DNA from: Owenia fusiformis
Taxonomy: Eukaryota
NCBI GenBank assembly: GCA_903813345.2
Contig: CAIIXF020000001.1
Location: 3,534,001-3,598,000, forward strand
Length of the DNA stretch: 64,000 nt
Direction: 5' to 3'
Position 1 is the stretch's first letter; each line of letters starts with the position of its first letter. A program made the position numbers and the translations under genes. Shown piece after piece: positions 1 to 34,200 of the stretch. The notes under the pieces are model-generated. The model had not been told where the DNA came from. It saw nothing but the letters and a program-made list of their open reading frames with translations, and ran no database searches.

Positions 1-112
1 TAAAAATAAAAACATGTATTAGCATTTGAGATAATGTGTGGGAATATATTATGATTGGTCAGAAAGTGCTGATGCATAATTAGCTATGCACGAATTTGTA
101 TATTGACCATAC

Positions 113-1542
113 CTGAAAAATATGTGATCTTTTAAGCCCTCTGGTGGGTTCCATTGAACTTGTTTTTGAAACTTGTGAACTTTATTTGATTGTGTAACGG
201 CACTCTGCAAGAGATCAGCGTCATGTATTATTACATTTGCACATTAGTATATAGTCATGGTTAATTTTAATTCATATAGTTTATCAAGCCCTACAATGAT
301 GAAGTTGTAGTCAATTTTTAAAGATTTGCTCTGGAAAAATTCACACCTATAGAGTGGGCCATAAAATTGGAACATATTTTGGCTATGAGAGCCATGTTTT
401 ACTTTTGGAGAAAACCTCAAATGCTTTAATCAATGAAATTTGAATCAAGATTATTTGAAGGGTAAACATGGTGATATGAAAAAATGTCTCTAATACACAT
501 ATACTCAATGCACTAATAATTGCTGATGACAACTCAGAGAAATATACAAATTGTTAATTTATCTTTTTCATTTTCACAAATAATCAGGAGATCTTAATCT
601 GAATATTTGTAGATTTAGCTCCCTTGATATAATACATTTTTATTTATTAATTGACACCACGTCCTAGTAACATATTACATAAATACATACATGGTATTGT
701 CATGCTATGAAAATAATTGATATAATGAAGGAAGGTATAATCAATGGAAAAATTGTTCAATATTTGTTGGCCCACCCTGTTTGTGTAAAAGTCTTAACTA
801 TATTTTATATGAAGATTAGCTATTCTACTTTGCCTACAATTAAATGCCATTAAGCTTACCTCTCGTTTTATACACCTCATTGTTTTCAGCTCATTGTCTG
901 TCACTGTAAAGTTCCCTAGAGCTTGGTTTTGGTTCAAAGATGGACTTGCCCTCCTGGCTTGAAGGAAAACCCCTTCAAACCATATTTCTGATGTGTTTCG
1001 CATTGTCACTGAAATAAAGATTATAAGGTGAACTTCTGTGTTGCATTTATTTGTCCTCTCCTTCCAGATAAGAGCAGCTCATTTATATTTGAGAAAAATG
1101 TTAGGATCCAAATTCAAAAAGTATATCATCGTGAGTCTAAATTGTTATCGATCTCACAAAAATTGAGAGCTGGATAAATAATCCACAGATGCTCCAAACG
1201 GTCCAGATTGCACATCTTTCTCTGCCTACCTTAATCATTTAAAGATATTGACCAAGTTTACATTATAAACAAGGTATTTGTTATTAATTCTTTAGTTTAC
1301 TTAACCAAAATTAGTTCCTTGTATTTTTTCACTTGTAAATGTATACCTTTTACTGGTTTTCCTGGTGTATAGTACCCTCCTTCATTGATCTCCAACAGAA
1401 ATGGAGCTGCTCCTTTCTGAGCAATCGCAGCATGTCCTGATGGAAACATGTCTACACAAGATCCCTCTGGTGGTCCACCAGGATATGACATCACAATTGG
1501 TAATGCTACCATTAGCATAACTGAGAACGAGGCCAGTGTCAT
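113..1542 (-). CDS. Reeler-domain secreted protein (defense-protein / ferric-chelate-reductase-like N-terminus), 5' part. Exons 1347-1542, 860-1008, 113-204; continues beyond the left edge.
   Basis: Signal peptide MTLASFSVMLMVALPIVMS is followed by Reeler motifs YPGGPPEGSCVDMFPSGH...PF, FEGVFLQARR...GNF...C and SAVTQSNKVHK...WNPP...IFFR. GT-AG boundaries have consistent phases (1, 0, 2). Confidence 0.85.
350..779. mobile_element. Degraded Tc1/mariner-type MITE in the Reeler gene intron
   Basis: Imperfect TIRs: TAGAGTGGGCCATAAAATTGGAACATATTTT at the left and AAAAATTGTTCAATATTTGTTGGCCCACCCTG at the right. Termini resemble the CAGGGTGGGCCA element at 23101. Confidence 0.55.
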
Positions 1543-4500: not shown

Positions 4501-5645
4501 AGTCGGGAGAAAGTAAGAATATGTCACAACCAAAAGTGGTGACATAATAACTTTAACTAAATTGAACTAATACAAACAAATTCATCAAAATTAATAATAA
4601 CCATTTTTCTCATTTTTTAAAGTGACTCTGACTTTAGTATGAATAAGTGAGCACGTGTGGTGGCTGTGCTTTAAGCAATATTTAACTTTTGAACACAACT
4701 GTTATATTGTACACTGTACTCTCGGTCTCCCGTTAATTAAAGGGCCATTTGCACTGCAAATGTCTACCCTGCATTGATCAATTCTTCATTTACAAAGCCA
4801 CCACAGCTTTAATATATTTATGTACAATATATGTGACATCACAAGTTATATTCATCTTATTTACAAATATGATATGAACAAGTTCTTGTACTACATTTCA
4901 TATGTGCAAAATCAAATATCTTGACTATGTAATTGTCCCTCCATTTTCAATATTTTTTTCTGGGAAATAATATTATTTATGCAATTTGTTTGGTTGAAAT
5001 AACGTATATGGTATTACATTTGACGATCTGTGGTCAAATTTCCACTGATTTAATCATATTTTCCAGATCATATTATTCTGTAATAAAATTCGATCTCTAG
5101 CACCTTGTGAAAATCAGAGAATACACGAATATTAGCTGTATTTAACTCAAATAATTTAAAACATGTAATATTAATATATTTTAATCAAGATTTAAATATC
5201 TGACAAAAAATCCTGGTGGGGTATAATATCTCTTTTAAAATATAACTTTCAAATAATTGATCATAGTTTTAGACACTTGTACATGTTTTATATTATGTAG
5301 TTATCTTATATACAATTACATACAGAATTCAGCTTTTCAAGTGGTCCTAAGTGTTGAAAATAAATATTTTTATATTATCTAAGTCTGAATTCTGCAATGT
5401 TAACGACATTGTAATGGTAGGATACTCAAGTTTAAATTTCTAATTTTGTTTCCTTGAATATTCTTCCATTTAGGTAGGCCTATTAAAATAAAATTCCTGA
5501 ATAACAAATTGATTCCCACTCTGGCCACCTTAATTTACTTTATCTCACTACAGAATGTGAATTAATCTACATGTTTTAATAGTAATAGCCCTTCTAAAGC
5601 AATAATACTGACTTGATTTATACGACAATGGAGCCTGTTATACAC

Positions 5646-5782
5646 CAGGGTTTCAGTGCTTCCTCACAAAGCATTTTGACAAAAATCTTCGTAACGAAGG
5701 ATTTTGTACGTGTGTAACCCTCAGAAATACTTCAATAGAAAGCTTTTCTGATAAAATATCTTGTGGCGAAGCACTGAAACCC
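5646..5782. repeat. Short inverted-repeat element (MITE-like)
   Basis: GGGTTTCAGTGCTTCCTCACAA pairs with TTGTGGCGAAGCACTGAAACCC; a poly-C run follows. Confidence 0.55.
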
Positions 5783-6416
5783 CCCCCCCCCCGTTTCATT
5801 TAAATAACTAATGTGGGGATCAGGTGATGTATATGTAGTTCTATTGGCCATCACCCATAGTCTTTGCAAATGTTTATTGTATGAAGTGAAGTGAAGTTTC
5901 TACATAAAGAAAAGCTAAATTGAAATTGATTTTTCATTGAATCGAAATTTGACATAATTTTTACTCAAATACCTACTTGTGTGATCTTCACCTTTATTAC
6001 TCACTGGTTTAACAAATCCCCTAGTCATGATTTCAGCAATACAATTAACAGTGTCTGTATGTGGACATAGCAACACATCACATCTCTTCACTTAAAACAT
6101 TCCTTCCAAATTCCTCTAAAAAAGGTGTATGAAAATTCGCTTTCTCTATAACTTCATCATGGTACGCCTCATGTATATTGTGTCTGTATTATCCATTACA
6201 CTATGTACTTTTCGCATACCAACTCCTTAGTGTTTCTTCTTAAAAACCAAGCCTTTTAAACATATTGTCCTGTGCCACATTGTGTGATAAATTGTCTTCA
6301 GGTGTCTCATATGCGTTGAAAATATTGTATTTTAAATTATTCTTTTATATCTGTTGGATATTCAGTGATGCACACATCCAGTTCAGCTATGACGTGTGAA
6401 TGATAAGTGAAGTTTG

Positions 6417-9400
6417 TTATTTTGGTCGTGTTCTCCTAACAGCACGCTTGATGGTTCGCTTCTGGCCACCAGCAGAGGGGGCTGTAGGCTGGAAAGGATT
6501 AGATGACACAGCCGCTGGTTGAGCGCTGAAACAAGAATGATTTTTATTAAATGGTAATTTCTATATATTTACTTCAATTTTTAAACTGTATGGTGGTTAT
6601 TAAGCCTATCACAAGTTCTTATGCCTATATATTATATTAACCCTCTGATTGCCATTAATTAATTCCTCATTAAAGCACACATATATCATGATATCATGTG
6701 ATGGCTAATGATTATGTTCAACATAAATAAGAACAATTACATATGAAAACCTACTTAAAGCCGAATGCTGAGCCTGGAGCAGTGGCTTGAGGGGCAGCTC
6801 CACCAAAGTTCATGCTGGGAGCAGCACTTCCAGTGAAGTTGAAACCTTGGTTCGCCTGTGGAGCAGCAGGGGCCGCAGCCTGACCAAAAGCAAAGCCCGT
6901 GTTAGCTGGCTGCTGAGGATCCGCTGCAGCTGGCTTTTCCTGGAGTTCATAAATTCAGAAATTGGTTATAGTTTTTACTGAAGTTACCGCTTGTTTATTG
7001 GAAACTCCAGGGAGTTGCTTTATGGTTTGTAAAAAAGACTATTTTGAATTCTTTTTAAAAGGATTTTCAGAGGAGATGTAACCTAAAATCAAGACCAATG
7101 AATGACCCTACTCACCTGTCCAAACTGAAAAACTCCACCAGATGGGGGTGCTGTTGATGCCTGGGCCCCAAAGTTGAAGCCTGTAGATGGTGCTGCATTA
7201 AACGCCGGTGGTTGGGCTGAAACATGATATCAATGACATATATAGCATGCTACCTATTCTATTACTACGTGTATCATGTAGCATTTGATGAGATTATGGA
7301 ATAATTGTTTTATGAAAATGTAATGGGCTAATTGCTCTTTTAACTTTCTAGAGGGGGGCTAATAATTATGTTGAATGATATAGAAATAAATAACAATAAC
7401 CTATAAAAAACATTGCTCTTGAAGAACCACACATGAGTTAATACAGTTAAAAGATGTGCAAAATTATAGGAGGATCAAAAACACTCTCAACAATGTTACA
7501 AATGGAATAGGAAAATAGAATATGAACAACGGCATACATCAATTGAATGTACTCACTTGTAGTTGGGGCAGGAGCACCAAATGCTGGAGCTGGAGCAGCA
7601 GTTGTATTACTACTCTGTCCAAATCCACCAAAACCTCCTATAATATTCATAAAGTATGAACAGTGGTGGGATGAGACTTCCATCAAAATGTATAATTCTG
7701 TATGTTTGTAATTGAATTGATTTCTTGTATTACCAGGGTTTATTAATAAATCAACATTGACCATTTCCTTATTTTATGTGGAAGAGATTGAGTAAAGTAG
7801 AATAAATCATGTTTAAACAGATAATAAATTGCTGATCCCTCCCCATGAGTCAATATGGGGAATATTTCTCTACCATTATGTTCACTCACCAGTAGTGCCC
7901 AATGTTCCTGCTCCCCCAAGTGTTCCTGCTCCCCCAAGTGTTCCTGTACCACCAAGTGTTCCGGTGTTGGCCCCAGAGACTGGCTGCCCAAATGCAAATA
8001 CCCCACTGGGAGCTGCGGCTGGTTTCTCAGGTTCTATAATACAATTAACAAATAGTGTAATGTTCTCCAAAGGATATTTCCTCAATTGAATGAAAAATAC
8101 TTATTTCATTCTCCCTATATTGAGAAATATCCATATAATATAATGAAATGGAATCCATAATGGACAATAAGTCATTTTCAAATTCTCAATAGGAATCTCA
8201 TGGGATTGCATGAATACTTCCCATCATATTTGGACAAACCATTTTGGGTCCTATGCAGCATGAGGAGTGACTTTTAATAATCAAAGATAAACAACAAAGA
8301 ACAACGGTCCTTTTAACTAGCTCATACGAGCCCCTAGTAAATGATACCTCACCTTTAGAGCCAAATGCAAATACAGCATTGCCTGCAGGCTTAGCTGTTG
8401 AGTCACCAAAGTTGAAGCCAGATGTTGGGGCAGATGAGCCAAATCCTGCAGTTGTTTTCTTGGATGCACTGGGACCATCATCACCTGAAACCATTGAAGC
8501 TTTTTCTTTATAGCCGGTCAAAACATGTGAGATGTGGCTTTCTTTTTATTCAAAATATTGAAAATTGACTGAGGAACCTCTGAACGAAGTCAACATTAGA
8601 AAGCCATTAGCTCAGTTTACCAACCAAAATGAACGAGTAGAAAGTAAGACACTATCTGTTGTTTAGTGAATATCCCGAGGAGATGAATATGATTTTCACA
8701 AGAGGAATTAGCAACAGTGAATTTTCATGTGAGGAACTGGAGGGAATTAACATTTTTTAAGAATATTTTCACAAATCAAATATTCCTCAGTGATATTCAC
8801 CAGGAACTATGAGTAGTATCATTGGATAAGATTACTGGCTCCCTATCTACTTATGTTGCAAAATAAATTGAACAAAGTAATTGTAAATATGGTCCAAAAG
8901 TATATCCAATGGCACTTACTATCAAGACTGCGTTTTTGTGTGGTCGGAGCACCAAAAGATAAAGTCTTCTTAGTATCATCAGTCTTTGCACCAAACATAG
9001 GAGCAGTTGATGACGCACCAAACACTCCAGCTGAAGGGGTAGATGAAGTCGCACCAAACATACCAGCTGCAGGTGTAGTCGATGGTGCTCCAAATGTAGA
9101 AGATTGTGTACTTGCACCAAACCCACCAGCAGTTGGAGCACTTGCAGATGTTGCTGTTTTACCAAAGCTAAACCCACCCACTGTGCTGGAAGTCACGTCA
9201 GACGATGGCGCTGATGTTGTCTTGGATGCATCTCCAAAGGCAAATCCACCAACACTTGAGGTAGAAGTAGCTGGAGCACTAGAGGTATCTTTACCAAACA
9301 CAAAGCCACCAACAGCAGGTTTAGATGGGTCGCTAGCTGTTGTAAGAGCAGTCTGTCCAAATGCACTTTTGAATTCTGTAGTAGCAGAACCAGAATTCAA

Positions 9401-18198: not shown

Positions 18199-21100
18199 TA
18201 GTCCAGTAAAAAACACAAAAATAAAGGAAAAAATTGCAAAATTTTTTAAACCTGGTGAAATCAATGTGTCTTGGTAAGTAAAAAAACATATCAAAAATCT
18301 AGAAAAATCTAAGAAGTGGAAGACTATGAATTTTCGTGCTGAAGATACCCCCCTCAATGGCCCCCCAAAATGACTACAATTTATTTTTAAAAAAATTATC
18401 ACACTACTTTCTTTTTAAAGTGTCCCTTGTTTTTTCATGTATGTATTAGAAATATATCAAAATTGATAGTTTCATAGAAGAAAGTTTGAAAATATTCAGA
18501 AAATTTCATATTTGTATGTGTACATGACCTTACCTTGTATGCATTTTCACCCATTTTTCTCTATAAATGCCTATAATTTGATCATTAGACATAGTGATGA
18601 CTTTTAAAAATTCACGAGAGTTGTCCTTCTATCAGATATGAGACACCATGAATATCAGATCTGTAGGTAAATTTGTTTGACAGAAAAAAATTATTTAAGT
18701 TCTTATAATTTGTTCATTTTCTAGGGCCAGTTTTAGGGTCAGGATGAGCGCAATATCAATACATCATCCTTTTAAAATAAGAGGTATATCAACCAAATAT
18801 TCAACATATTATTGTGCCAATGATGTGTAAAATACAATAAAATATAATTTTGTAGATGAACAGAAAAAATTTATGTTCTTAATTTTGACAATTCTAACAT
18901 CATGGGGCAGGGGTGAATTGAAAAGTGGGCGTGGCACTTTTTGGTTACATTTCCGATTTATTTTATGTTGGTAGTGTTATCACAGTCATTTTCATTGGGT
19001 CATCGATCCCATTATCGTCAATTGATCATAATTGGTCAATAGTAACAATGGGTCGCAAATTACTCACAGTAGGTCATAGTAACAAAACGTGATTATGTAA
19101 AATGTGGGCGGGCCAGGGACACCTACTTATTATCTTAACTACATTTTTACTTTAAAAGATTATCAAAGGAGCTCAAACAATTTTCAATCTAATTGTTCCG
19201 CCTGTAATTATCACAAATGTTCTTATTTTTTTATTAAGTGCTTCAGCAATAGCCTGATAAGTGAAAATATAAATAATGTGACCTCAACCGCTAAAATAAG
19301 CTGAGGTGCTGACTAAGTTGCGATCCCATTCAATTCATGTCATTTGCAATATATTGACTATGAGAGTATTCTACCATATGTATGTTTAGAGTCCATGTTG
19401 TAATGTTGATTCAAAACTCTGCACTGTGTTCCAATCCCCAGAGAACATGCGGCTCAACCCCTAGAAAGTAACATCCCATACCTTAATATGGTAGAGCACT
19501 TAGACTATATAAGATAGTTCAGCTACCAGATCCTAAGATGGTACAGTCTACAAACTCTAAATTTGGGCACAGCCTTCAGAGTCTTAAGAGGGGAACAGCC
19601 TCCAGAGACTAAAATGGTTCAGCCTCCATTGTCAAAGATGGTTATAGCCTTAAGAATCTAAGATTGTACAGAATCCAAAGTCTAAGATGAATACATCCTC
19701 CAGAATCTAAGATGGTACAGCTTCTGAAGTCTTAGATGAATACATCCTAAACAGAATTTAAGATAGTACAGCCTCCAGAGTCTAGGATGAATACATCCTT
19801 CAGAATCTAAGAGGGTACATCCTCCAGAGTCTAAGATGAATGCATATTCCAGAATCTAAGATAGTACAGCCTCCAGAGTCTAAGATGAATTCACCCTCCA
19901 GAATCTAAAATGGTACAGCCTCCAGAGTTTAAGATGAATACATCCTTCAGAATCTAAGATGGTACAGTCTCAAGAGTCTCAAGATGGCTCAAGAGCCTCA
20001 GCCTCCAAAGTCTAAGATGAATACATCCTCCAGAATTTTAGATAGTACAGCCTCCAGAGTCTTAGATAAATATATCCTCCAGAATCTAAGATGGTACAGC
20101 CTCCAGAGTCTAAGATGAATACATCCTTCAGGATCTAAGATAGTACAGCCTCCAGAGTCTAAGATGAATATATCCTCCAGAATCTAAGATGGTACAGCCT
20201 CCAGAGTCTAACATGAATACATCCTTCAGGATTTAAGATAGTACAGCCTCCAGAGTCTAAGATGAATACATCCTCCAGAATCTAAGATGGTACAGCCTCC
20301 AGAGTTTAAGATGAATACAATCAATACATCCTTCAGAATCTGAGATGGTGCTTGCAATCTCTACCCATACAAGTGGGTCAACAAGGCCCCAACATACTTT
20401 AACACCTAGAAATTGATCATTGACCTTGGAATGACTTTGACCCATAACATTGACCTTGACTTCAGGTTACCTTATCATTGGTCGTCAAGGGTCACAGCAT
20501 CCGCCCAGGATCTTAAAATGCCAAATACCGAGATATTGACCTATGATCTTAATAGGGTACTCATTGATCCACTAAGAATATTGATCAAGCATGATGACTC
20601 AAGGTTGAAGGGTCTAGAAGGGGATATCCAGAGAGACAGAGAGTGAGAGACATGGCCTGGCGTATTTTGTAGTAAGAATATACTACAGTAGCAAAGCATG
20701 TGTCTTAACAAACATCATTATCAGTTAAGTTGCCATAACAACCATGTATCAATATTATCCAAACTTAATTTTGTTAGAATCATACACAAAATAACTCTTG
20801 AAAAGTGAATGTAATTGGAACAACCTGTTAAGATATAAGGATTATTTGAAATGATCTCTAGCCACTATTTGCATTCATCATTATGTTGTGTTACTATGGC
20901 AACCATTTGACCAATCATGTTCAGACTTAATTACCATATCAATTTATAATATCTGTATTCATAACCCCTATAAATTATGACTGTGATTGATACTGTCAAA
21001 ATAAAATTGTTAGAAAATGTAACCAAAAGTAACACACCCACTTTTTAGTAGATTGAGCAGTAGTCACCAAATATCAAGTCCAGAGTCATAGACATCCATG

Positions 21101-21598
21101 AGTTCATCATTTTTATCATGTTATCTTATTGACAACTCCCTAAATATGTTTCAAAGGTCAAATTTGTGTTCATTTGGAATAACTTAACTTAATAACTTAA
21201 TAAGATAAGCAGACATTTGTTTTTAAGGAAGCTTTGAATTTATCCAAAATATTCACAGCTTTTGTGTAATTAAATTGTGTTGCCATGGTAACCACTTCAC
21301 CAATCTACAGTATATCAAACTTGCCATGTTAACTGACTATGTATAGCTGCATGATCCCTGAAAATTTGAATGTGATTTGGGGTACATAACAGGAATTATT
21401 AAGGTTTATCAAAGTACCCCCTCATAAAAGTACCCCAGGGGGTATTAATGGTGATTTTCGAAGTTTTTCACTACTTAGATTTTTCTAGATTTTTGATATG
21501 TCTTTTAACCCATCATTGTGCATTGATTACACTAGGTTTAAATACTTTTGCAATTTTTTCCTTCATTTGTCAATTTTTGCCACGGTTTTACTGGACTA
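18199..21598. mobile_element. 3.4-kb non-autonomous DNA transposon with TAGTCCAGTAAAA termini, long imperfect TIRs and a 3-bp TTA TSD (Academ-like or PIF/Harbinger-like)
   Basis: 18199-~18325 is an imperfect reverse complement of ~21460-21598, with further inverted similarity between ~18925-18952 and ~21015-21041. TTA lies at 18196-18198 and 21599-21601. No transposase ORF. Confidence 0.8.
19480..20350. repeat. Minisatellite array with a 49-bp dimeric unit (25+24 bp): CAGCCTCCAGAGTCTAAGATGAATA-CATCCTCCAGAATCTAAGATGGTA
   Basis: Directly visible; period 49 (CAGCCTCC at 20097 and 20146). Degenerate at the left end, more homogeneous at the right. Confidence 0.92.
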
Positions 21599-22233
21599 TT
21601 AGCCTAGTGGAGACATTTCATTTCTGGAAATGTTAAATGAAGTTTATTTTGGGGGATTAAAGTTTCCAGTCGTAGCAATGTTTACATAAATGATAGAGAA
21701 TATCTTATGCTGTATCACTTTCAAAGTTGCATCTCTATTTGCATATTAACATATCTGGCTAGTTTGCAAGATAACGTTTAAATCGTTGCAATATATTGTT
21801 CATGTAATCCATCCAGAGAATAGATACATATTAATTTCATCTAGCCATTGCATACAATGGGGATAAAAATGAAGGTTATATTTATTTATTTGGTCCTGAT
21901 GCTGGCGGTTGGATTTACAACAGGTTTGAGCAACATGATATAATTTTTGAAATGAGAAACGTGACATCACTGAATGGCATGGTAAACTACTTAAGCAAAA
22001 ACAATTCTGAATGAAATAAATATTATACATCTTTAAAGTATAAAAAACAATAGATGGCAAAGCACTTCAAAAATATGATTTCAATATAATTTGTCATTTA
22101 TAAGATTTATATTGCGTCATGCTGCTAGCGGGTGTCAGTGAGGGTCTAAATGTGAAAGGGTGTCATCATGTGTCCTGACATAAAATATAATTATATTGTT
22201 TCGAACAATTATTAATCAATACAATATTTTCAG

Positions 22234-25200
22234 GAGCGGATAATGGGCATACATTTATTGGACCATTCACTGTGAAGGACGGAAACAATAGAGATCTGTT
22301 TTTTAAAATATACTACACCAAGGATAAACGTAATTCACTTTCTTGGTATAATGCAAAAGCATATTGCGAAGGAGAAAATGGTTATTTAGCAAAGCTCGAT
22401 TCTTCTCAAGCAAATGATGGAATAAAAAAGGCATTAGATGAACAAATAATAAGCTTACCTAATTTAAGTGCGAGCAAAGGTTTTTGGATTGGATTAATTC
22501 AAGATAGAAATGTAAGACAAAGTAGCAGTTATTACTGGATTGATGGTGAGCGTCTTTTGCATTTACACTGTGATATAGTAACTAAGTAATAGTTCATACA
22601 TTTTTACACGTCACTAGTAACTAAGTAATAGTTCATACATTTATAGTTCATACATTTTTACACTAGTAACTAAGTAATAGTTCATACACTTTTACACTAG
22701 TAATTAAGTAATAGTTCATACATTTTTACACTTCTTATCTTTAATATAATTTTACATGTTTTAAATTGAATAAACGTTGCATTCGCATAAATATTTCCAG
22801 AATTCAATTTTCAAAGCCTTGAATGCACAAGAAGCACGCAGTTGTCATGTAGAAGGGAGGCCACTGCGGGTGGAGAAAATACCAATGAAGAATCTTGCAG
22901 AAAGAATATGTGTTGTTGGACCGGGACAGAATGTGTATTCCCAAAAGGAACACCAAATAGTAAAAATATATACCTAGTACTACATTATTAAAAAACAAAT
23001 TAAAAAATATTATACTCCCTCTTTTGAAACCCTTCCTATTTGAAATAATATTAACGTAATATGACATTTCTATATGGATCTTTCAAAACAGTAGGTTATA
23101 CAGGGTGGGCCAAAAAACCCAATACCCAACTTTGAATCAGGATAAAAATAGCTATGTTCAATATTATACATTGATTTATATATCATTTTAAAGGTAATCC
23201 ATTTTCAAACAATTTGGTATATAACACTATGTCATGAAATCAATATTAAAGTTTTATTATACTTATTTGGGAGGCCGGGTTGCTTTTTAAGGTCTCCAGA
23301 TTTTAGGGAGAAAAAAGTAAATCTGCGGAATAATGTTAATTTTTTATTTATAGAATGTCATTTTGTTAGGTGAATACATGGTTCTATACGTGCATAGTGT
23401 GACTAAACGTTTTGTTTATGAATTTCAGTGTTGTTTACTATCATTAAGCACTCAAAAGGGGTCTGTTAAAAGACATTAAACATATATGTGACGAGGATTT
23501 TATTTTGTAACAAGACATTGCCTCGTACCATAGATCAAAGGAGACATTGGCATTCCTTTGTGAATAAGGTGTCAATTTGGTTGATCTTGATGCTTGACCA
23601 CCCACTAGCCCCGATGCTAATGTGGTTGATTGCCATACATGGAGCAATCTCAAGGAAATGGTACAATCACAAGCATCCAATAAACAGCATTGATGAGCTG
23701 AAACAGAATCCTAAAGTGCTAAAATGAATTGCAACAGAAATCTCTCAATAAGGCTATTGATAGATTGCACTACCACTTGAAGCTTATTGTTGACGCAGAG
23801 GGGGAAGGGGGGGGGGTGTATTGAGCAATTGTTAGAATTGGTTAAATAAATAAAGTGTAAAATGTTATTAAACAGCACTGCTATTTATAAACAATAAATA
23901 TAGTCACACAATGATGCAAATATCAATATCCAAGCATGTATTCACCTAACAAAAAATGATATTCTATAAATAAAAAATTAACATAATTCCTTAGATTTTG
24001 CTATTTTCCCCCTAATATCTGGAGACCTTAAATAGCAACCCGGCCTCCCAAATAAGTATAATAAAACTTTACTATTGATTTCATGACATATTGTTATATA
24101 CCAAATTGTTTGAAAATGTATAACCTTTAAAATGATATGTGAGTCAATGTACCATATTGAATGTAACTATTTTTATCCTGATTTGAAGTTGGGTATTGTT
24201 CTTTTTGGCCCACCCTGTATATTCATATATTGTGCCCAACAGTACGACAAGACAATTCATGTGAAGTAGAAGATAGATTCAGAGACGCTTGCAAAGGTAA
24301 CAATGGCAACCCTACAACATGCAGAGCAGATAAAGACTGTTGCTACCGGCGACCAAATGACAACCAGTATCCAACATGTTTCTACAAACATAGTTTACCA
24401 GGTCCACTGGGTGAGTCTTAAATTAAATCTATGATACATAGCATATACTTGTATAGTATAATATTGTAATCCCTTTGTGAAATAAGTTATCCGAAAAAAC
24501 TTTAAAAACTAAACTCCATGTTTAAACACTACAAAAGTCATCTCTTGTCAGATAAACTGTAAGAATACCTTTTTCAGTTCACGACCTCAGGAGTAAAAAC
24601 TCCAAGAGACCGATTAAAAATGAATTATAACCAAGAAAACGGTATCAAAAAGATGAATAACTATTTCAATTTTGAATGTTCCATAAAACATCATCACTGT
24701 CATTCCGACTGAAGTATCCAATTTTTAACATTTTAGGTTATACCGACTGGGGCATAGGTAAAGGAGGTACGGACTCAAATGATAGACGCTGTGGGATTCT
24801 ATGGCAAGATTTTAGTTGGCAATGGGATCACCAGAAGTGTCAAAGCAACAATGGAAACAATGTAGGATTCATCTGCCAATATCGTAAGTTGTTTCACCTT
24901 ATGTTGTAGTATACTACTATTTGTTTGGACATCGTATCATTAGAATTTAAAATGTATTATGATTTTAACACATTACATTCGAACATAGACTGGCTCACAA
25001 GTGAGTCAGTATTTTACATTGTACAATGTTATAAAGTTATAAACTATACGATATAAACTATATATATGCTACAAATTATAAACAATATATCTTTTAGGCT
25101 ATAAACTATACATTCCGATAAATTATAAACCATTTCAGCTGTCATGCCTTCCACTATCTCACCTTCTACAACAATGGAGCAAACCACAGCAGCGACAACA

Positions 25201-28200
25201 ATTACAACACAATCAACGACTACAACCTCTACAACAATTGAAACAACACAGTCACCAATGACGACAACCATAGCAACAACAATACCAATACAAATAGTGG
25301 ATACCACATTAAGTGACACAACAACAATTGACACAACAGTAGCTGAAACAACAATAGTCGACACAACAATGGTTGACACCACATTGGCTGAGACGACAAT
25401 AGTCGATACAACAATGGCTGACACCACATTTGCTGACACGACAATAGTTGACACGACCATAGATGAGTCAACAGAGGAACCATCTACAACTCCACTTGTG
25501 ATTTCATACAGCACAACAAGACATTCTGTTTCTACCAGCCAAGAGTTTGAGTTGACCACAGCCCGTGAAATAGCTGGCACCACTACTACGGACCGAAGTT
25601 CTGCTGTTCCTCCATCAACAACTGTTAGTATTGCCCCATCATCGTCAGTGCTAACATCATCATCTACAGCATCATCAACGGCTACAGTAGCATCAACAAC
25701 TTCATTACCATCATCATCAACAGCTGCAGCAGAATCATCAACATCAGCTACACAAATGTCTTCTACAATAGGTGAGTTTATTTTGGTTTCTATTGAAGAC
25801 ATGAGATCCTCCAAATTTTATGATTTCACTTTTTCAGAACACACGAGGGATACCAGTAAAGACAAGCAACTAAACAATAGCAACCAAATTCTTGTTATTC
25901 TTGTTCAAGTTCCATACTTGCAGGTCCAATTCAAATCAAAGTTGTTTAAAATTATACACAACATCACATCCATCGTGTCTTGGATAAACCAACAGTCGAT
26001 AGACAAAATTATTTGTAACATCCTGGTTGCAACACTTTGTGCACTGATTCTGTGATGGTATTGGGGTTGTCATTAGATGACACTCTAAGAATAATGTGTA
26101 TGAAAGCAATTCCAAAATAACTGGCTATATTTGGAAGATAATTGGGGAGGAAAGAAAATGTTTTATTCAAAAAGCCCCCTGAGGTACTGAATTGGTAAAG
26201 CGTGTACTATACACTTACTTATACATGCATAAGGCTGATGAAAATGACAAAATGATGGATGTAACACAAGAAAACTTTATTTCCATACATTTTATAATGT
26301 TGTATTTCCGGGCCTCAGATCAAGAGGGTCCCATCATTAAAAAAATGGACGGTTGGGTCACAATTTACATCAGTCAAAATATGTATCAATTGATTCGAAT
26401 CATGTTTTTGATAAAGAAAAATAATTATGTTAACCATGCATTTCCAATATTTTAGATTTAGCATCAATTAAAAGGGAAAGAGAGGAATCTGATAGAGCTG
26501 GTAAAATTGGTAAGTATGAAAACAATGCAAGTGAACAGAATTTAAAACTAAGAGAAATAGAAGGGACAACAGAGCGTTACTCAAATGTTACAAGAAACTT
26601 TTTTAGCAATCTACAGTCGGTGAATTTTAGAAGTGTTTTCAAAATTAACTACTGTCGTACGTATTATTTTATATGTTCTGACAGACAACTTCAGTGAAAA
26701 TGTGTATTTATAAACTACATTAAATCCTCGCAAAACAATTAAATAAGAACATCTGATTAATTCTAATTTCCCCGCCCTCAAGCCACACGCGTTCATATAT
26801 TCTGAACGGCTCGGAATGTAGTTTTGAAATAACGTTTCTTGTTATGTTACACCCTATGCACATCTTGATTCACAAGGTTTCAGTTTCTTCAACTTGTGTT
26901 ATGACCATCTTGGAATTCGAAGATGCCCTATGCAGACGGAGTTTGATGTATACTGCGTCAGAATGAATTACATACTATTTTTACAATTTTATTGATATCA
27001 GGTGTCAACTACACATATATGAGTATATTTCAAATCAAAACAGCTAAGTTTAAGAAATATCGCAAATTTAAATTCAATAATGACCGCTCATTTCTGCCGC
27101 ACCAAATATTCCCCACAGGCTCCGTCTACATAGGGTGTATTATGTCAATCATTCGTCCATCTTTTTTCCACCATAATTGATATGCAAATGAAGTTAACAG
27201 TTCGATGAAAAATATGAACTTTTAAACGACTGTGTTTGTCTAATTTGATATCTAGCCCTACTATCACACCAAACTAGTTCTCACTACGTTCTCGAAAACG
27301 GGCTTCAACTGTATACGAACGGACTGGACCTACTAAGAACCGTTTGGGATCTATTTACAAACTTCATCGAACGTACTCGAACGGGTAGGTCCTCTTGAAC
27401 TTAGACAATGCTCGAAATGTTGTCGTGGTCGTCACGTTCTATTATTTGAACGAGTGACAACGTACTAACAACGAGCTGGACGTACTACGAACGGAACCGT
27501 CGTACTTCAATCATACTAGGGACGTTTTAACAACGAGTTGAACTGTCTGAGGACGTGTTGAGAACGAGGTAGAACTAAATGCAAACGGGATTAAACTGAT
27601 TAAGAACGTATTTAACACTGCTTATGAACGAGCTAGCAAAAATATAGCTATCACACCAAACAAGTTGCCACTGCGTTCTTCAAAACTGGTTTTAAACTGT
27701 GTGCGAACGGAATGAACGTAGCTGCAACTTTCTAAGGTCTATTTACGAACTTCATGAACGTTCTCAGACGGGAAGGTGATTTTAGAATTTTGAATCGATT
27801 CAAAATTCGATGGCGACCATACCGTTCTGTTATCAGGTCATGGTGACCTTCTAGACTAAGGGACGTTGCACATCGACCTGGTGCGACTTGAACGAACTGC
27901 GAATGAGATGGACGTATTGAAGACTGTTTATGAACGAAGTAGCTAATTATTTCAGACATATTTCCCGACCACAGCCAGATTAAGCCCGTTTTACGACTTT
28001 TTCGTAGGACTGGCAAGAACGGGTAAGAACTAGTTTGGTGTGATAGCAGGGTTAGTGAGATTACGATTTTTTGTACGTTTTTGTACGTGTACGTGGACGT
28101 GTAGAGTTATGGTCCTCTGTGGATTAGTTTAAAGGTATACGGAAAAATAATTGTAATTAGGTACCTGGAAAAGTGAATTGAGAGCGGGGTGGTAATCCCC

Positions 28201-31200
28201 GGGGTCGAAATATTACACGCTCACGTACAGGTTCCCTTAAAACGTGTAACTTTGCCTCCCTACTAGCTACAAAGACATAACTTGATACCAGCTAAATAGA
28301 TTTCTTAGTTTCTGAAATGTTTTGTGTAGAAAAGCAGGCAAATGCAATAGACTTTTTATTTGAGTCTATATGTTATAATTGAGTGAGGAAGGATACTACT
28401 GTTATTAGCTTATAAGGGAGGTCGACCTTCACGTTTTAAGAGGACTTGTACGTAAACGTGTGAAATCATTGTCATCTAGGGATTAGTTCATAATACTACT
28501 CGTTCAAGTTCTCTAAAAACGTTTAGCGTGAGCTTTAATTTTAACGTCACTTACAGATCTATACGTTGATACATTTACCAAACCAGTCTGACGTAATTTA
28601 TCTACTCCCTGAATCTGAAATGTCGTAGATCCACACCGGAATAGCCTGACAACGGTAAAATCAGATATCGTTGTCACAAATGGCGGACATAACCGTCGCT
28701 TCAAGACTTTAATCACTTGGTCCTCATTTCATGGGATTTTATCGTCGCTAATCCTGTGCATGCATTAAGCTCTTGTGATGATGTATCATATGAAATCCCA
28801 ATTTCGATCAAATTGGGTCGTGAATCGCAACAATATAGCGTCTTCGATATCGTCAATGACAACGGAATCTGAATTTGAAATATTTACAAAGACAACGGCA
28901 TATGGTAATACAGTGTCTGTTGTCCCGTATCTCATTTTGATCGGTTAAATTAAAGACTTTATTTCGATGGTAGAACATTATTAAGTGAATAATGAGTATA
29001 AAGACACTTTGGTTGATTGTTGTTCTAAAGTCTAGATGCTCTATTAAACATACAGTTCATGAAAATCTAATTGAAAATACGGTTATGTCCGCCATTTGTG
29101 ACAACGTTATCTGACTTTACCGTTGTCAGACTATTCCGGTGTGAGATCTACGACGTCGAACTGGGCCAGACGGGTTTGGTTAGGCGTACATTATCATTGA
29201 CGTGACGTGTTGACAAATCGAAATCCAGTAAAACTATGTTATTTGAATTTGTATACTTATTTATTGAATTTATTTGGATGCTATTGTATACTTTTCGGTT
29301 TGGAATTATACAGACATGATTATAGTACTATATAATAACACAACTAATAGCTAATACAAGAAAACACTGTGATTGTAAGGAAATTTAACTGTTTACTTAA
29401 TTTTTTTTAAAATCCAAGTTGTGAACTCAAATGCAAAATTATGTAATGTTTGTTGTAATGTTGTAGATGCTACACGCCATTCATTGTTGTTTGTTTGTAA
29501 GGCTGTCTTATCTGATACCATTCTTAATTTCTGTTACCAACTTTCTGAAAATATAAAATAAATAGTGATATAAATATGCTGAATATTATAATCAGTATGT
29601 GATTGATGTGTTAAGTTGTGGATGTTACAAAACGGAAAAATGACGTTGCATCCTTCAAACGCAGGGCTCCAGATATAACTGACGCATCAACAAGAGGGAA
29701 GTTGTTGATGACGGGAGCCGTGCGTCCGGAGGTTGTGATACTGTTGCTTTATGAAGAGGCTTACATTCAACCTGTTGTTTATACTTTTCTTCCATCTGCG
29801 ACATGAAATAGTGAAGAGTCCCGAACATCTTGTAAACAACCTCGGCTGCATCATCACTGATGTGGAGACCCTTCATATATGCCATGGCGTCACACATCTT
29901 TCCCATGTGCTCGGTGTTCCAAGGGGCGTCCAATCTGACTTGACGTTTTGCTCTCATGTTTTCCACCTCCTCTTTGGCTTCGTCGATGATGTCTTCTTGC
30001 TTGGGAATATTGTGTTCTCCATCAATGGCACCTGCCAGCTCGGCTCTCAATTGGCAGACAACGTGCATACGCTTCAGTTGTTCCCATACATAATCACGCA
30101 TGGCGGAGTCATCGTATGTTTCACCTTCTTCCGCTTGTTTTGTCTCAGCAAGGAGGCGTTTAAGAGTTGCCACCATTCCACTCTTGCTATCCCTTTTGAC
30201 TGGGCCACTCAAAGTTGCGGGGACAACCAAGAGCATCAGGGCCAGGGAAACAGTCACAATATTCATCTTGAAATCTGGAAAAAATGAACAATTATCAGTA
30301 CATCCTTGTTGCAATTGATGGATTGAGATCTACTGCAACTTTTGCTTTTTGTTTTTGCATAGAATGATGGAAAATTCAAATCTCAGACTGAAAACTTGAA
30401 AAAGTTGAGGTTACCCTTGATTATCCAATAAAATATAAAGAACTTATCTCGTTTTTTAAATTGATTTACTTGGAGTATTCGCAGCGAGAAACAATGCGAA
30501 GAGGTCAGAACAATTTATAATTCCAACTCCAAAACTCAACCCAAAACAGTTGAAACTTAGGTAAGTTAGATACAATTGAAAATCACAATTAAACTTGAAT
30601 ATTGCAACTTTCACTTTGAAAAATAAAATAAGGTTGAGTTTAAAACTTTTCATGTGCTTTTTAAGTTTGAAACTATTCAAGAGACTATTAAGGATACTAT
30701 AAAAAATACAAATTAGACCAAAATACAATGCTTTTTCTTGAAATGTTTATTATTTTGTATTTCTGAAGTGCGATACATTAATCATAAAATAATTGGTGCT
30801 CGTCAAAATTTTTTGAATAATTCTTACCTTGTTTGGTCAGACTCTCTCACTCCTATGGGAACTAAAAAGTGGTACCTTGTTGGTGGTAACCCAAGATTTT
30901 AAAGTCCTAGGCTATTATGTTATTTTATAAGATTTATAAGTTTGTTTTGGACCCCATTGTGAGAATTCTTATATAATGTACAGGGTGCTTCGCTATTTAC
31001 AGTCTACTTTAAAAGAACATATTTCAAGGTTTTTCATCAAAATATTTATTTGATCTATTTATGCATCGTTTTTTTTGTTTCCACTAAGTACATTATGTGA
31101 TATTTTGATATTAACCCTCTTTTTAGTATAGTCACGCGGTACTAACTTCGACCGTTAATTTGAATTTTTGACCTACCAGATGTATGAAAATCAAAGGATT

Positions 31201-34200
31201 GCGAGTCTCATACTGCACCGTTTTTTCAAACTTGTTCCATTCAAAGCATAACAAAAATGACTTTTTGTATCTTTTTATTTGAAATTTCCACAGAATGTGT
31301 AAAATAATGGCAGCCATTGGTGTGACGAATTTCATTTACTTTCCTTCAATTGGAAGAACAAATTGGTTACTAGTATGGTCACGCTTCTTCAGACCTTGAT
31401 CGATCTGACGCATCATTAGTAAAATGTTGTTTGTAATTTACTGTAAACACATATTTTGGCAATATCTGTTAGATTGGCAAAAATGGGAGCAAGGATATGT
31501 AATATTTCTGTTACATGGCAAAAATGACAAGCCATAGATAGGTTGACTTCAAATTCATACAAAGGACGCAACGTCGCGATGCCTCAAAGATTTTGACCAA
31601 TATCTGTTAACGTTGCAATGAATTATGGGATTTGACATTTTTTATTTGTTACACAATAACTTGAGAACTCATTGCCTGATTAACTTTAAATTCATACAAT
31701 GATCACCAATCTTCAAACTTAGGATAATATTAGTTACCGTTGGATATGGAACTTGCACAGATACGTTTTCACTTTATGTATTTATTTAATTGTCATGGTT
31801 ACAATTATAAATACTTGTACTTTAATACATCGGAAACAATTACCCCAGGCTCCAATCCATGTGCAATCAAAAATGATCGTCAAAAATGTTTTGTTATGAA
31901 TTGATCAGATTGTGGAAACTGTTATGTTGTCTAAGTCCTAAACTTTTCTGCATGAGATGTCAAATTGGCCATTTCTAATTCTTGCCTTTCCCGAGGCCTT
32001 TCCCATCTCTAAGATGCTGACACTGGGAGATGGCTGAAACAAACTCTGTTGTCAGGTTATGTTGAAATAATTGATGCTTGAGATCGTGAGCTTAGTTATT
32101 TTGTCGTGATCAGTTTAAACGGTGTCACTGTTCCGTCTCACTCTGTACTCTGAACCTTGTCAAAGGGTGAGAACGTTTAATACCTAGAACACGTCGATTT
32201 AAATCCCCTTTCCAATATCATTTTGGCACTGCCAAGAAGACAGATTGGTGTTCATTTCAAATTTAAATTTATCGATTTAGTTAAGCTCTTTAAAGGGTTG
32301 GTATTTGGATTAACTACACGGAAAACAAGTAATTCTTATTCTTAAATTCCAACTAGTTAGCCACTATTATTTTCTCATTGGAATTTTTATTCATGTTTGA
32401 AATCGCTTTTGTTACACAGCCGATATTAATGATGTTGTAGCTCTGCAATAACAGTGTCTGGATATTTAAAGGACATTTAAACTTGAACTGCTCCATCAGT
32501 GGTCCTCGTGAGAAATCATGGCCTTCTGTTAGCTTATTTCTAGAAGTCATATTTCTAGTTAACGACAGAAAGATTACGCTTTGCAATAGTTCGACTTCGC
32601 TTTTTAAAGAGAGCTTCGTCTATACTCTTGGAGCGGGGTACATAAAGATGGGATGAGTATCAGAATCGAATGTATTATCGTTATGTACTTGAATATCGTC
32701 CCATATCTTTTCTAGGATGTTAGTGATACTCCCATAGGCTTCGGGAATAGTAGTAATACTATGTATAATAAAGTTTCTTTCTCTTTCTCCGTCCATCACA
32801 TCATCTTTTATGGGAATCTGGTGCTATCCATAACACTTTTCAACCATGGGCTTTCAACTAACTGAAAGCCCATGCTTTAACCCAGCTCTTAATTGGCAGA
32901 CGTACATACCATGGGCGTCTTCTTGAACTCACTGTCCTGTCTTGTTTTAGAATGAGGACGTCTCATTTGTTTCATATGATTCTTATTGTCTTTTTGACTG
33001 AACTAAGCTTGGGTTCGACAGCAAACAACACAATCAAGGTCACTGGATAAACTGCAATATTTGCAATGTTGGGCAGTGCGCAATTGAATTGCAAACGCAA
33101 AATTGCAAGACTGGGACGGAAATAAATTTCCATACTACAGTATCGATGAAATCTAATTTATGAATTTATACTTTCCAAATTTTTAAAGATATTCAAAAGT
33201 TTTAACATTTTATAAGCACACTACTATACCTAACACCTAGAAATGCATAAGATACTTTGTTTGTCTAGTTGAATTGTTTAATATATTTTTGAAAGTGCCT
33301 TACTAGCATCTAATTTTCAACCGATAAACCATTCATAAGGAACAGACAAATAAAAACAAATACATAATCATTACTAATGAGCCAAATGGGTTGCTCATGA
33401 ACACCAAATGCAAGGTATAGTAGTGTGTAAGTGGTAACGAGCATCTTAGCGTCTTTGGATGATATATACCAAATATAATATACTTTAAAACCTGGCAAAC
33501 AAATGGTAAACAATAAGTATGCCCGGGTATATATGGTACAAGTATATATACATTTTTGAAATTAATTAACAAAATGGACAATTATCGAATGAATTATTCT
33601 CGATTCTGTAACACGATCGAATCTGGACCAATTTTGAGGCTTGATATAATATTCAGACATATCTAGACAAGGTGTGTCCGATTCCACGCAATCAGAAAAC
33701 GCTATTTCAAGTAACTGCATGCTATTATTTCACTTTATTATATACCTCAAATGTATTCTAGATGCTCATTGGCTTATTCATGGTCACATGACATGGAAAG
33801 TCCTAAATCCCTGCTTTCAGGGAAGATGAATTGTACTAATCACCAGTTAGGTCATGTGACCAGTCAATAGTACATTTTATCTTCCCCCAAATCTGAGATT
33901 ATAGGAGTTGAAAGGTAAAATGCCTTTAAATGCCAATAAGAACCTGTGAACATTTGATATTGAAATGAAAAGACTTCTCATTTTGTTTTTGTTTACAGAG
34001 TACTTATCAGGTATATAACAAAACAAATAGTGACTGCCACATTTTCGGGAAATAGTGTAAAAATTTTCCTCTCGGGAATATCTATTTGTACAATATTACC
34101 TGCAGAAACAATGCACTGAACGATATCTAATTTCCCGGGGAAAATTGCCGCTCATTACTTGCATTCTTGACCGGCAATATTGACCGCCACCATGACGTCA

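Follow-up and report, generated by a model that had tools for sequence, protein, structure and literature searches.

A C-type lectin domain in the annelid Owenia fusiformis interrupted in its long loop by two six-cysteine, trefoil-like modules

The window analysed here (the whole 64-kb stretch of DNA, from the marine annelid worm Owenia fusiformis) carries on its forward strand the gene whose parts are listed in Table 1, and a deposited O. fusiformis protein of 516 amino acids (P0001) contains the products of exons 2 to 5, all present and in the same order. The first-pass annotation of this DNA had given two exons with phase 1 at both ends, set between two lectin half-domains; a reading of the sequence and a script confirmed the borders of exons 2 to 5, each of them phase 1-1 with AG before and GT after, and the two half-domains and both cysteine spacings were found exactly as it had described them. 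P0001 starts with MLAVGFTT, at the second methionine, downstream of the first ATG in exon 1, and the hydrophobicity of the leader encoded by exon 1 suggests that it is a putative signal peptide. Threonine and serine together account for 105 of the 210 residues of exon 6 (69 T and 36 S, with 10 P), and its tandem repeat lies at 25314-25466 with 10.2 copies of the 15-nt unit. A long, repeated Thr/Ser/Pro-rich region together with a hydrophobic leader is what marks a mucin-like (PTS) protein, and the gene encodes both, O-glycosylation of the region being a prediction.

Between 25700 and 33000, a scan for hydrophobicity turned up no open run of 20 hydrophobic residues that could belong to a transmembrane exon, and no second copy of exons 2 to 5 was found by tblastn within the 64-kb window. 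The repeat element in intron 3 is probably a non-autonomous DNA transposon; sequencing depth over it exceeded the depth over its flanks by factors of hundreds to thousands, and its open reading frames had no Pfam match. An Rfam scan of 20000-30000 gave no match.

Table 1. Coding exons of the gene and repeats within its introns (positions in the window)
Feature	Position	Strand	Description
Exon 1	21869..21923	+	ATG at 21869, GT donor after 21923; ends in phase 1; leader MKVIFIYLVLMLAVGFTT
Exon 2	22234..22545	+	N-terminal half of C-type lectin domain (CTLD), end ...FWIGL...YYWID; 100% identity to P0001; X3 contigs span 22231-22491
Exon 3	22801..22959	+	First nested six-Cys module, phase 1-1; divergent trefoil-like, short-loop type
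Exon 4	24243..24410	+	Second nested six-Cys module, phase 1-1; trefoil (TFF/P-type) module
Exon 5	24737..24883	+	C-terminal half of CTLD, GYTDW...RRCGILW...WDHQKC...FICQY; three of the four canonical CTLD cysteines
Exon 6	25139..25768	+	Thr/Ser-rich mucin-like region; 15-nt (5-aa) tandem repeat, about 10 copies
Exon 7	26453..26520	+	Short charged segment DLASIKREREESDRAGKI; 3' border approximate, from GT after ...GGTAAAATTG; P0001 sequence
Last coding exon of deposited model	28326..28382	+	...EKQANAIDFLFESICYN, stop; placed by tblastn of P0001 on the window
Intron 2 tandem repeat	22576..22734	.	34-49 nt units; outside the protein
Intron 3 repeat element	23097..24221	.	225-nt terminal inverted repeats 23097-23321 / 23997-24221, 90% complementary; outside the protein

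Exon 2 alone matched the Pfam Lectin_C profile (PF00059) with 33.9 bits (E 5.6e-08, profile 2-58 of 107; curated cut-off 22.6) and the whole of P0001 matched it with 32.2 bits over residues 43-145 (profile 2-82), the C-terminal half of the Owenia domain lying beyond the reach of the profile. W93-I94-G95-L96 and the cysteines C53, C240, C256 and C268 are invariant in an alignment of four sequences (A1), these cysteines being the canonical ones of alpha1, of beta3, of the position after beta4 and of beta5, and WIGL and the four canonical cysteines are common to Owenia and the canonical CTLDs of struthiocalcin (4uxm), mannose receptor CRD4 (7l63) and Reg3alpha. The two halves are separated in Owenia by an insert of 110 residues (P0001 113-222), whereas P0022 and P0014, which are also canonical CTLDs, can be aligned through the insertion site with no insert. 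The accessible text of PMC7618208, in which the role of the WIGL motif is defined, places the long loop region of CTLDs between beta2 (WIGL) and beta3, which is where the Owenia insert lies, and so the proposal that the insertion is in the long loop was upheld. The same accessible text gives two motifs for calcium site II: the triad EPN/QPD lies in the long loop, and WND belongs to beta4. Owenia has neither of these calcium-dependent carbohydrate-recognition motifs, with K-G-G aligned to the E-P-N of P0014 and W-D-H aligned to its W-N-D (alignment A2), and because of these replacements canonical calcium-dependent sugar binding by the Owenia CTLD appears unlikely.

When the same split architecture was searched for elsewhere, it was found in the nemertean (ribbon worm) Lineus longissimus and in five unnamed records. 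A phmmer search against 1.84 billion representatives gave 15 matches at E<=0.001, among which P0002, P0005 and P0012 have the split, and a profile search added P0023, P0024 and P0025. A word-indexed profile search among proteins of near lengths brought up P0012 and a single perlucin-like protein and no others; as it missed P0005, the size and range of the family are certainly underestimated. The Lineus protein is P0002 (XP_064624380.1, 'mucin-2-like'), and all of these relatives bear automatic names only, with no further description. In each of the six the CTLD is interrupted after W-x-[DR] by a six-Cys module, as it is in Owenia; across 7 proteins the insert occupies the same site, 18-24 residues after WIGL, in 12/12 CTLD units, and finding it at the same place in every unit is more than chance would provide.

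The relatives carry one module per CTLD, whereas Owenia carries a tandem pair. P0002 contains two of these interrupted CTLDs and, like Owenia, a Thr/Ser-rich stalk after the lectin part. A hydrophobic C-terminal stretch in both P0002 and P0005 looks by eye like a transmembrane segment. Pfam ZP-C is matched in P0023 and in P0025; in P0024, which has no ZP match, a similar region was recognised by eye. At the EPN and WND positions of alignment A2 Lineus has E-P-S and W-D-D.

An AlphaFold model of the Owenia domain aligned with 4uxm at Z 13.4 (rmsd 2.6 Å, 126/131 residues, model 2..270), with pLDDT 70-82 in the CTLD parts, and Z was at least 8 for 516 of the 1000 chains compared; its predicted fold matched canonical CTLDs such as the three named above with Z 12-13, nearly all of the reference chain being covered. 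A model of a Lineus unit likewise aligned with 4uww (Z 15.2, rmsd 2.3 Å, 123/130 residues). The two CTLD halves are thus predicted to close into a single complete fold in both Owenia and Lineus, and the Lectin_C match, the conserved cysteines and the alignment of the model over residues 2-270 support the assignment of both halves to one CTLD and, with it, the earlier reading of a domain within a domain. The inserts had pLDDT <50 in both AlphaFold models (the input alignment held 9 sequences), and neither their trefoil fold nor their placement relative to the CTLD was reproduced confidently, so that, of an arrangement in which the halves close and the trefoils loop out, the models bore out the first part and left the second at low confidence. 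Matches to beta-trefoil lectins were set aside, as theirs is an unrelated fold.

Splicing was assessed in the contigs of run X3, which consist of exon sequence and leave out the introns between GT..AG borders, from which we infer that this run derives from RNA; runs X1, X2 and X4 had intron coverage and loose ends resembling a transposase adapter, and were treated as DNA-like and excluded from the splicing evidence. The three junctions predicted by the first-pass annotation (22545>22801, 22959>24243 and 24410>24737) were all present in X3 contigs, together with 24883>25139 and 25768>26453, each of them in a single contig of this one run, and contig 20 connects 24243-24409 with 24736-24858.

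These contigs bear on the possibility that exons 3 and 4 are cassette exons, such that skipping both restores a plain CTLD and the nested form is one regulated isoform. As each of the four exons is phase 1-1, any combination of them would remain in frame, and a joint of exon 2 to exon 5 would form the codon GGT (Gly), reading WIDG-YTDW, which resembles the canonical W-x-D-G...Y-x-x-W. However, no exon-skipping joint occurs among the 15 joints listed of 33 (contigs of this kind drop rare or minor isoforms), while the spliced contigs seen include both exons, as does the deposited P0001; moreover the 12/12 CTLD units carrying a module come from 7 proteins with independent annotations, and this speaks for inclusion as the normal functional state. 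We therefore regard the cassette model as unlikely.

Trefoil domains have a three-loop fold with six cysteines within about 40 residues, joined by disulfides I-V, II-IV and III-VI. The six-cysteine pattern C-C-C-CC-C was found in 13/13 modules of the 7 proteins. Exon 4 has cysteine spacings of 9, 9, 5, 0 and 11 followed by CFY (C-x9-C-x9-C-x5-CC-x11-C-FY) and matched the Pfam Trefoil profile (PF00088) along its full length (profile 1-43 of 43) with 20.2 bits and E 5.6e-04 against a cut-off of 21, or with 15.2 bits when scored within the whole of P0001; its best PDB sequence match was TFF1/pS2 (1ps2_A, E 0.07), with the whole trefoil domain spanned. Exon 3 has spacings of 7, 15, 4, 0 and 5 followed by CVFP (C-x7-C-x15-C-x4-CC-x5-C-VFP), a pattern that matches the short inserts of the relatives, and it had no Pfam match and no PDB sequence match. 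Against a profile of the relatives' inserts, exon 3 was the best of 402 targets with 17.1 bits (best shuffle 12.3) and exon 4 scored 10.9 bits (shuffle 9.9), these small profiles giving only a modest separation of the Owenia exons from shuffles. The nearest named clusters in the ESM Atlas were Trefoil for both exons (score 0.85, with 178/256 features for exon 3 and 179/256 for exon 4), and these are to be taken as leads only.

Among the relatives, P0002 (53.7 bits, in 2 stretches), P0005 (29.4) and P0023 (29.2) scored above the 21-bit Trefoil cut-off and P0025 (20.8), P0012 (17.7) and P0024 (16.2) below it. In P0005 the Trefoil match (residues 118-160, profile 1-43 of 43) lies inside one Lectin_C stretch (residues 51-212, profile 3-107). 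The trefoil identity first proposed was thus supported by the six-cysteine pattern and by the relatives that pass Pfam, with exon 4 falling just short of the cut-off and exon 3 giving no match; for exon 3 the cysteine pattern, the weak family profile and the language-model lead point to a divergent, trefoil-like module. A recent tandem duplication giving rise to exons 3 and 4 was considered and rejected, BLASTP having matched the two only in the region of Cys III to CC, with 7/17 identities (E 0.021).

The accessible text of PMC7221086 ascribes lectin activity to TFF domains, and the sugar contacts that it gives for TFF3 are an Asn or Asp before Cys II and a Trp before Cys VI, residues which mark the lectin activity of TFF1-3, not the fold. 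Exon 3 has Ser and Glu at these positions and exon 4 has Ala and Thr. The Asp and Trp contacts are found together in only 2/13 modules, both of them from Lineus, which thus keeps these contacts as well as its E-P-S and W-D-D remnant of the calcium site, whereas Owenia keeps neither; with these contacts missing from its modules, TFF-like sugar binding in Owenia is doubtful.

The modules might instead not be trefoils at all: in this lineage the long loop would have been elaborated with disulfide-rich sequence that merely mimics the C-C-C-CC-C pattern. Such an origin would suit exon 3, with its lack of Pfam and PDB matches, and a score for exon 4 that stays under the Trefoil cut-off, and it would also suit loop lengths that differ from the TFF1 alignment (in the short type only 5 residues separate Cys V from Cys VI), the low confidence of the insert models and the absence of TFF ligand contacts from 11/13 modules. 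It sits poorly, however, with the three relatives that pass the Trefoil cut-off (P0005 over the full length of the profile), with TFF1 as the top PDB sequence match of exon 4, with the D-C...PWC-Y-Y-P kept by both Lineus modules and with the Trefoil leads for both exons in the ESM Atlas. It also sits poorly with the gene structure, as exons 3 and 4 are each a single exon with phase 1 at both ends, and the accessible text of PMC7350206 describes TFF modules as typically single class 1-1 exons that have been shuffled; this agreement favours the earlier reading of exon shuffling, and we consider a non-trefoil origin of the inserts distinctly improbable. An annotation or assembly artefact, in which the exons of two genes were merged or a pseudogene is decaying, is extremely improbable, as spliced contigs link exons 2-3, 3-4, 4-5, 5-6 and 6-7 with all frames open and the same order of parts recurs in the nemertean protein and in the five unnamed records, even though the spliced contigs reach only to exon 7, the 3' part (the last coding exon, past a highly repeated stretch) being that of the deposited model, and this model starts at a codon other than the upstream ATG.

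The CTLD and the trefoil are both textbook domains, and it is their nesting that seems to be undescribed: a full-text literature search covering main texts found no description of a trefoil module in the loop of a CTLD. The initial impression that the architecture belongs to no characterised family therefore held as regards the literature, and it did not hold as regards uniqueness, since this site is occupied in the relatives too, there by one module. In the accessible text of PMC7350206 and PMC7221086, known TFF mosaic proteins resemble the Owenia protein in having a class 1-1 exon module in secreted, mucus-associated proteins with a mucin-type region. They differ in that their modules stand beside other domains, as described in the accessible text of PMC7350206, whereas the Owenia modules stand inside the loop of another domain, and the partners that this text names for TFF mosaic proteins do not include a CTLD host.

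We favour the explanation that this is a real, expressed Owenia gene encoding a secreted, mucin-like glycoprotein with a CTLD whose loop carries two nested modules, and we give this explanation as a whole, with the steps of origin and function that follow, a probability of roughly 0.75. The architecture would have had a single origin, in which a class 1-1 TFF exon was inserted into an intron interrupting the CTLD loop, and Owenia would later have acquired a second module that is now very divergent. The modules would stand out from the CTLD on its upper lobe, where ligands bind. With its EPN and WND motifs lost, the Owenia CTLD may serve mainly as a rigid scaffold, with a binding surface provided or remodelled by the nested modules. 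The protein, with its Thr/Ser-rich stalk, may work in the manner of the TFF-bearing integumentary mucins of frogs, as a component of secreted mucus or of the tube lining, with a head that binds glycans or partner glycoproteins and so cross-links the gel; we infer that the head functions in binding mucus glycans.

The architecture is expressed and common to at least an annelid and a nemertean, and is therefore a selected one and no accident of annotation. It offers a clean natural case in which the shuffling of symmetric exons places a domain in the middle of another domain, and it indicates that the CTLD long loop tolerates a disulfide-rich guest of 50-110 residues. It also gives a testable system for the combination of two lectin-type modules, with the TFF sugar contacts present in Lineus and absent from Owenia, and it extends to spiralian invertebrates a link between TFF modules and mucins that the accessible literature reports mainly from vertebrates. 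More tentatively, and with rather more doubt than confidence, these proteins may form a spiralian lectin-in-lectin family, in which the CTLD gave up its calcium and sugar site to become a rigid scaffold presenting exchangeable TFF modules at the canonical binding site; such a family would go back to one event, in which the long-loop intron received a class 1-1 TFF exon before annelids and nemerteans split, and would later have been put to new use on mucin stalks, on membrane anchors and on ZP polymers. If this is true, the family would represent a natural instance of binding modules grafted onto a loop of a CTLD framework, and would provide an invertebrate origin for the partnerships of TFF modules with mucins and with ZP domains.

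Exon borders and phases were read from the DNA itself and by script, and the coordinates and motifs of the first-pass annotation were all found to be correct. [quoted passage not shown] The junction codon between exons 2 and 3 is GAA (Glu); joining exon 2 directly to exon 5 would make GGT (Gly), giving W-I-D-G-Y-T-D-W. The deposited protein of this gene from the annelid Owenia fusiformis (P0001, 516 amino acids, “unnamed protein product”) is 100% identical to the translation of 22236-22544 and contains exons 2 to 5 in exactly the genomic order. Its first residue is the second in-frame Met encoded by exon 1 (MLAVGFTT), and an upstream ATG at 21869 adds MKVIFIYLVL, giving a fuller signal-peptide-like leader.

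Exons of the split lectin gene (window positions)
Feature	Position	Strand	Remarks
Exon 1	21869-21923	+	hydrophobic leader
Exon 2, CTLD N-half	22234-22545	+	AG/GT borders, phase 1 both ends
Exon 3, first six-Cys module	22801-22959	+	AG/GT borders, phase 1 both ends
Exon 4, second six-Cys module	24243-24410	+	AG/GT borders, phase 1 both ends
Exon 5, CTLD C-half	24737-24883	+	AG/GT borders, phase 1 both ends
Exon 6, Thr/Ser-rich	25139 to about 25768	+	
Short exon	starts 26453	+	
Last coding exon	28326-28382	+	

Contigs of four sequencing runs (X1 to X4) were compared with the locus over 21700-28600. Those of X3 were confined to exons and skipped introns at GT..AG, from which we infer that X3 is an RNA run; those of X1, X2 and X4 extended over introns and look like DNA libraries. 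All three junctions expected of the split domain were present in X3, each in one contig (22545>22801, depth 28.2; 22959>24243, depth 34.6; 24410>24737, depth 34.6, the shorter flank being 123 nt long), as were 24883>25139 and 25768>26453 (one contig each). Transcripts of the gene thus include both modules, if X3, the single run giving RNA support, is taken to be RNA. With all phases being 1-1, it is possible that exons 3 and 4 are used as cassettes, but this is unsupported by the spliced contigs seen and by the relatives described below; no exon-skipping joint was among the 15 joints listed, in contigs that drop rare forms. Allelic differences were seen at 24752-24753 (GGC>GCT, Gly>Ala, in X1, X2 and X3), at 22852 in exon 3 (AGA>AAA, Arg>Lys, in X3) and, synonymously, at 24771 and 24774; in the runs compared, exons 3-5 showed no difference that would break the frame.

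In intron 2, units of 34-49 nt (resembling TAGTAACTAAGTAATAGTTCATACATTTTTACAC) form a tandem array of about 5 copies (22576-22734). Intron 3 carries, at 23097-24221, a repeat element about 1.1 kb long whose 225-nt terminal inverted repeats show 90% complementarity. In the runs compared, it is covered hundreds to thousands of times more deeply than its flanks. It is a probable non-autonomous DNA transposon, and none of its ORFs had a match in Pfam. Some contigs joined 23119 to 24202, so interior-less copies exist elsewhere. The stretch 27244-28167, in the intron before the last exon, resembles a repeat of very high copy number or a satellite-like element: contig depths there add up to about 100,000-230,000 for the DNA-like runs and to about 5,000-7,500 for X3, and rearranged joints within it are numerous. 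A search of 20000-30000 against Rfam gave no match.

Exon 2 matched Pfam Lectin_C (PF00059; 33.9 bits, profile 2-58 of 107) and exon 5 gave nothing meaningful against Pfam (sub-threshold Peptidase_S74, 13.9 bits, E 0.071). The proposal that the inserted exons are trefoil (TFF) modules held in part. Exon 4 matched the whole Trefoil profile (PF00088; 1-43 of 43, E 5.6e-04) yet scored 20.2 bits where the cut-off is 21 (15.2 bits inside full P0001), and its top PDB sequence match was human TFF1/pS2, spanning the whole trefoil domain (E 0.07). Exon 3 has the cysteine pattern but no match in Pfam or among PDB sequences. The nearest named ESM Atlas clusters for both exons were Trefoil (178 and 179 of 256 features), at a score of 0.85 which by the tool's own calibration is a lead only. 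Likeness between exons 3 and 4 is limited to the region from Cys III to CC (7/17 identities, E 0.021), and their recent duplication was rejected.

Searching 1.84 billion representatives by phmmer with residues 1-270 of P0001 gave 15 proteins at E<=0.001, of which P0001 and three others have the split: P0002 (XP_064624380.1, “mucin-2-like”, 837 amino acids, from the nemertean Lineus longissimus) and the unnamed P0005 (260 amino acids) and P0012 (449 amino acids). A profile search of longer proteins added P0023, P0024 and P0025 (also unnamed); a near-length profile search gave few matches and missed P0005, so that the family certainly extends beyond these 7 proteins. A C-C-C-CC-C module starts 18-24 residues after WIGL in 12/12 CTLD units, making 13 modules as only Owenia has two. 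Cys V and VI are separated by 8-12 residues (the long type) in both Lineus modules, in that of P0005 and in exon 4 of Owenia; in the short type, made up of Owenia exon 3 and all eight modules of P0012, P0023, P0024 and P0025, exactly 5 residues lie between them. When a profile of the relatives' inserts was run on 402 targets (the two exons and 400 shuffles), exon 3 ranked first (17.1 bits; best shuffle 12.3) and with the long-type profile exon 4 came first by a small margin only (10.9 vs 9.9 bits). Ordinary CTLDs (P0014 and the Haliotis perlucin-like P0022) aligned across the site without an insert. The split is shared with the nemertean and with five unnamed records, and the architecture is kept across two phyla.

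Pfam Trefoil was above cut-off in three relatives (P0002, 53.7 bits in two stretches; P0005, 29.4 bits, residues 118-160, profile 1-43 of 43; P0023, 29.2 bits) and below it in three (P0025, P0012 and P0024; 20.8, 17.7 and 16.2 bits). These scores make it unlikely that the inserts are instead a non-trefoil, Cys-rich elaboration of the CTLD loop; the spliced X3 contigs contradict a reading of the split gene as an artefact. The precomputed Pfam list for P0002 has PF00059 together with PF00088, and in P0005 one Lectin_C stretch (51-212, profile 3-107 of 107) encloses the Trefoil stretch, which is the nested architecture as Pfam itself would describe it. In P0023 and P0025, a pair of trefoil-split CTLDs occurs in one protein with a Thr/Ser-rich linker and a match to Pfam ZP-C; of the two, P0023 alone has a Trefoil score above cut-off. 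No Pfam ZP match was obtained for P0024, in which a region looks similar by eye to that of its ZP-bearing relatives. This pairing of Trefoil and ZP is like that of vertebrate ZP1/ZP4, except that in P0023 and P0025 the trefoil is nested in the lectin domain.

An AlphaFold2 model of the Owenia head was made from a 9-sequence alignment (mean pLDDT 59.8). Model residues 2..270 aligned to complete CTLDs, best to struthiocalcin-1 (4uxm; Z 13.4, rmsd 2.6 A, 126/131 residues). Z was at least 8 for 516/1000 PDB chains, and the titles of the 50 listed entries point to CTLD-type proteins. A Lineus unit (mean pLDDT 61.8, residues 80-160 below 50) best matched 4uww (Z 15.2, rmsd 2.3 A, 123/130 residues). 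The halves are therefore predicted to close into one CTLD. In the Owenia model the CTLD parts have pLDDT 70-82 and the inserts fall below 50, so the models speak to the closing of the lectin halves and not to the fold or placement of the modules.

In the CTLD layout outlined in passages of PMC7618208, WIGL lies within beta2 and WND within beta4, and the long loop region (beta2-beta3) is where calcium sites I-III and the EPN motif are located. The insert therefore lies upstream of the EPN position and within this loop region, in agreement with the proposed site. In an alignment of Owenia, Lineus and ordinary CTLDs, Owenia has K-G-G and W-D-H where P0014 has E-P-N and W-N-D, and thus canonical calcium-dependent sugar binding by the Owenia CTLD is unlikely; Lineus has E-P-S and W-D-D. 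According to passages of PMC7221086, TFF3 contacts GlcNAc-alpha-1,4-Gal through two side chains only, an Asp preceding Cys II (replaced by Asn in TFF1 and TFF2) and a Trp preceding Cys VI; binding is abolished when they are mutated. Both residues occur in 2/13 modules, both from Lineus; the Owenia modules have Ser/Glu and Ala/Thr there. Judged by these residues, both canonical sugar sites are degenerate in the Owenia head.

A full-text literature search, covering the main text of articles, turned up no account of a TFF module lying inside a CTLD, in keeping with the first-pass annotation, which recognised the architecture from no characterised family. The matches read were on beta-trefoil lectins, TFF reviews naming no CTLD host, and a table of Trefoil + Zona_pellucida for ZP4. 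The proteins are already in databases under automatic names only, and CTLD and TFF are each known; it is their nested arrangement that seems undescribed.

TFF modules are described, in passages of PMC7350206 and PMC7221086, as single class 1-1 exons shuffled into mosaic, often mucus-associated proteins, and as having lectin activity. We suggest that a class 1-1 TFF exon entered an intron splitting the CTLD loop, that it may have been retained because a surface loop of the upper lobe can accommodate the termini of a small disulfide-locked module, and that a second module would have been gained later in Owenia. The CTLD-TFF head would be carried on the exon 6 stalk, which is 50% Thr+Ser (105/210 residues) and contains a 5-residue repeat; no transmembrane exon was found in a hydrophobicity scan of 25700-33000. 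The protein is therefore probably secreted and mucin-like, contributing to mucus or to the lining of the tube. Its head would bind glycans or partner glycoproteins, a putative role resembling that of the TFF modules in frog integumentary mucins.
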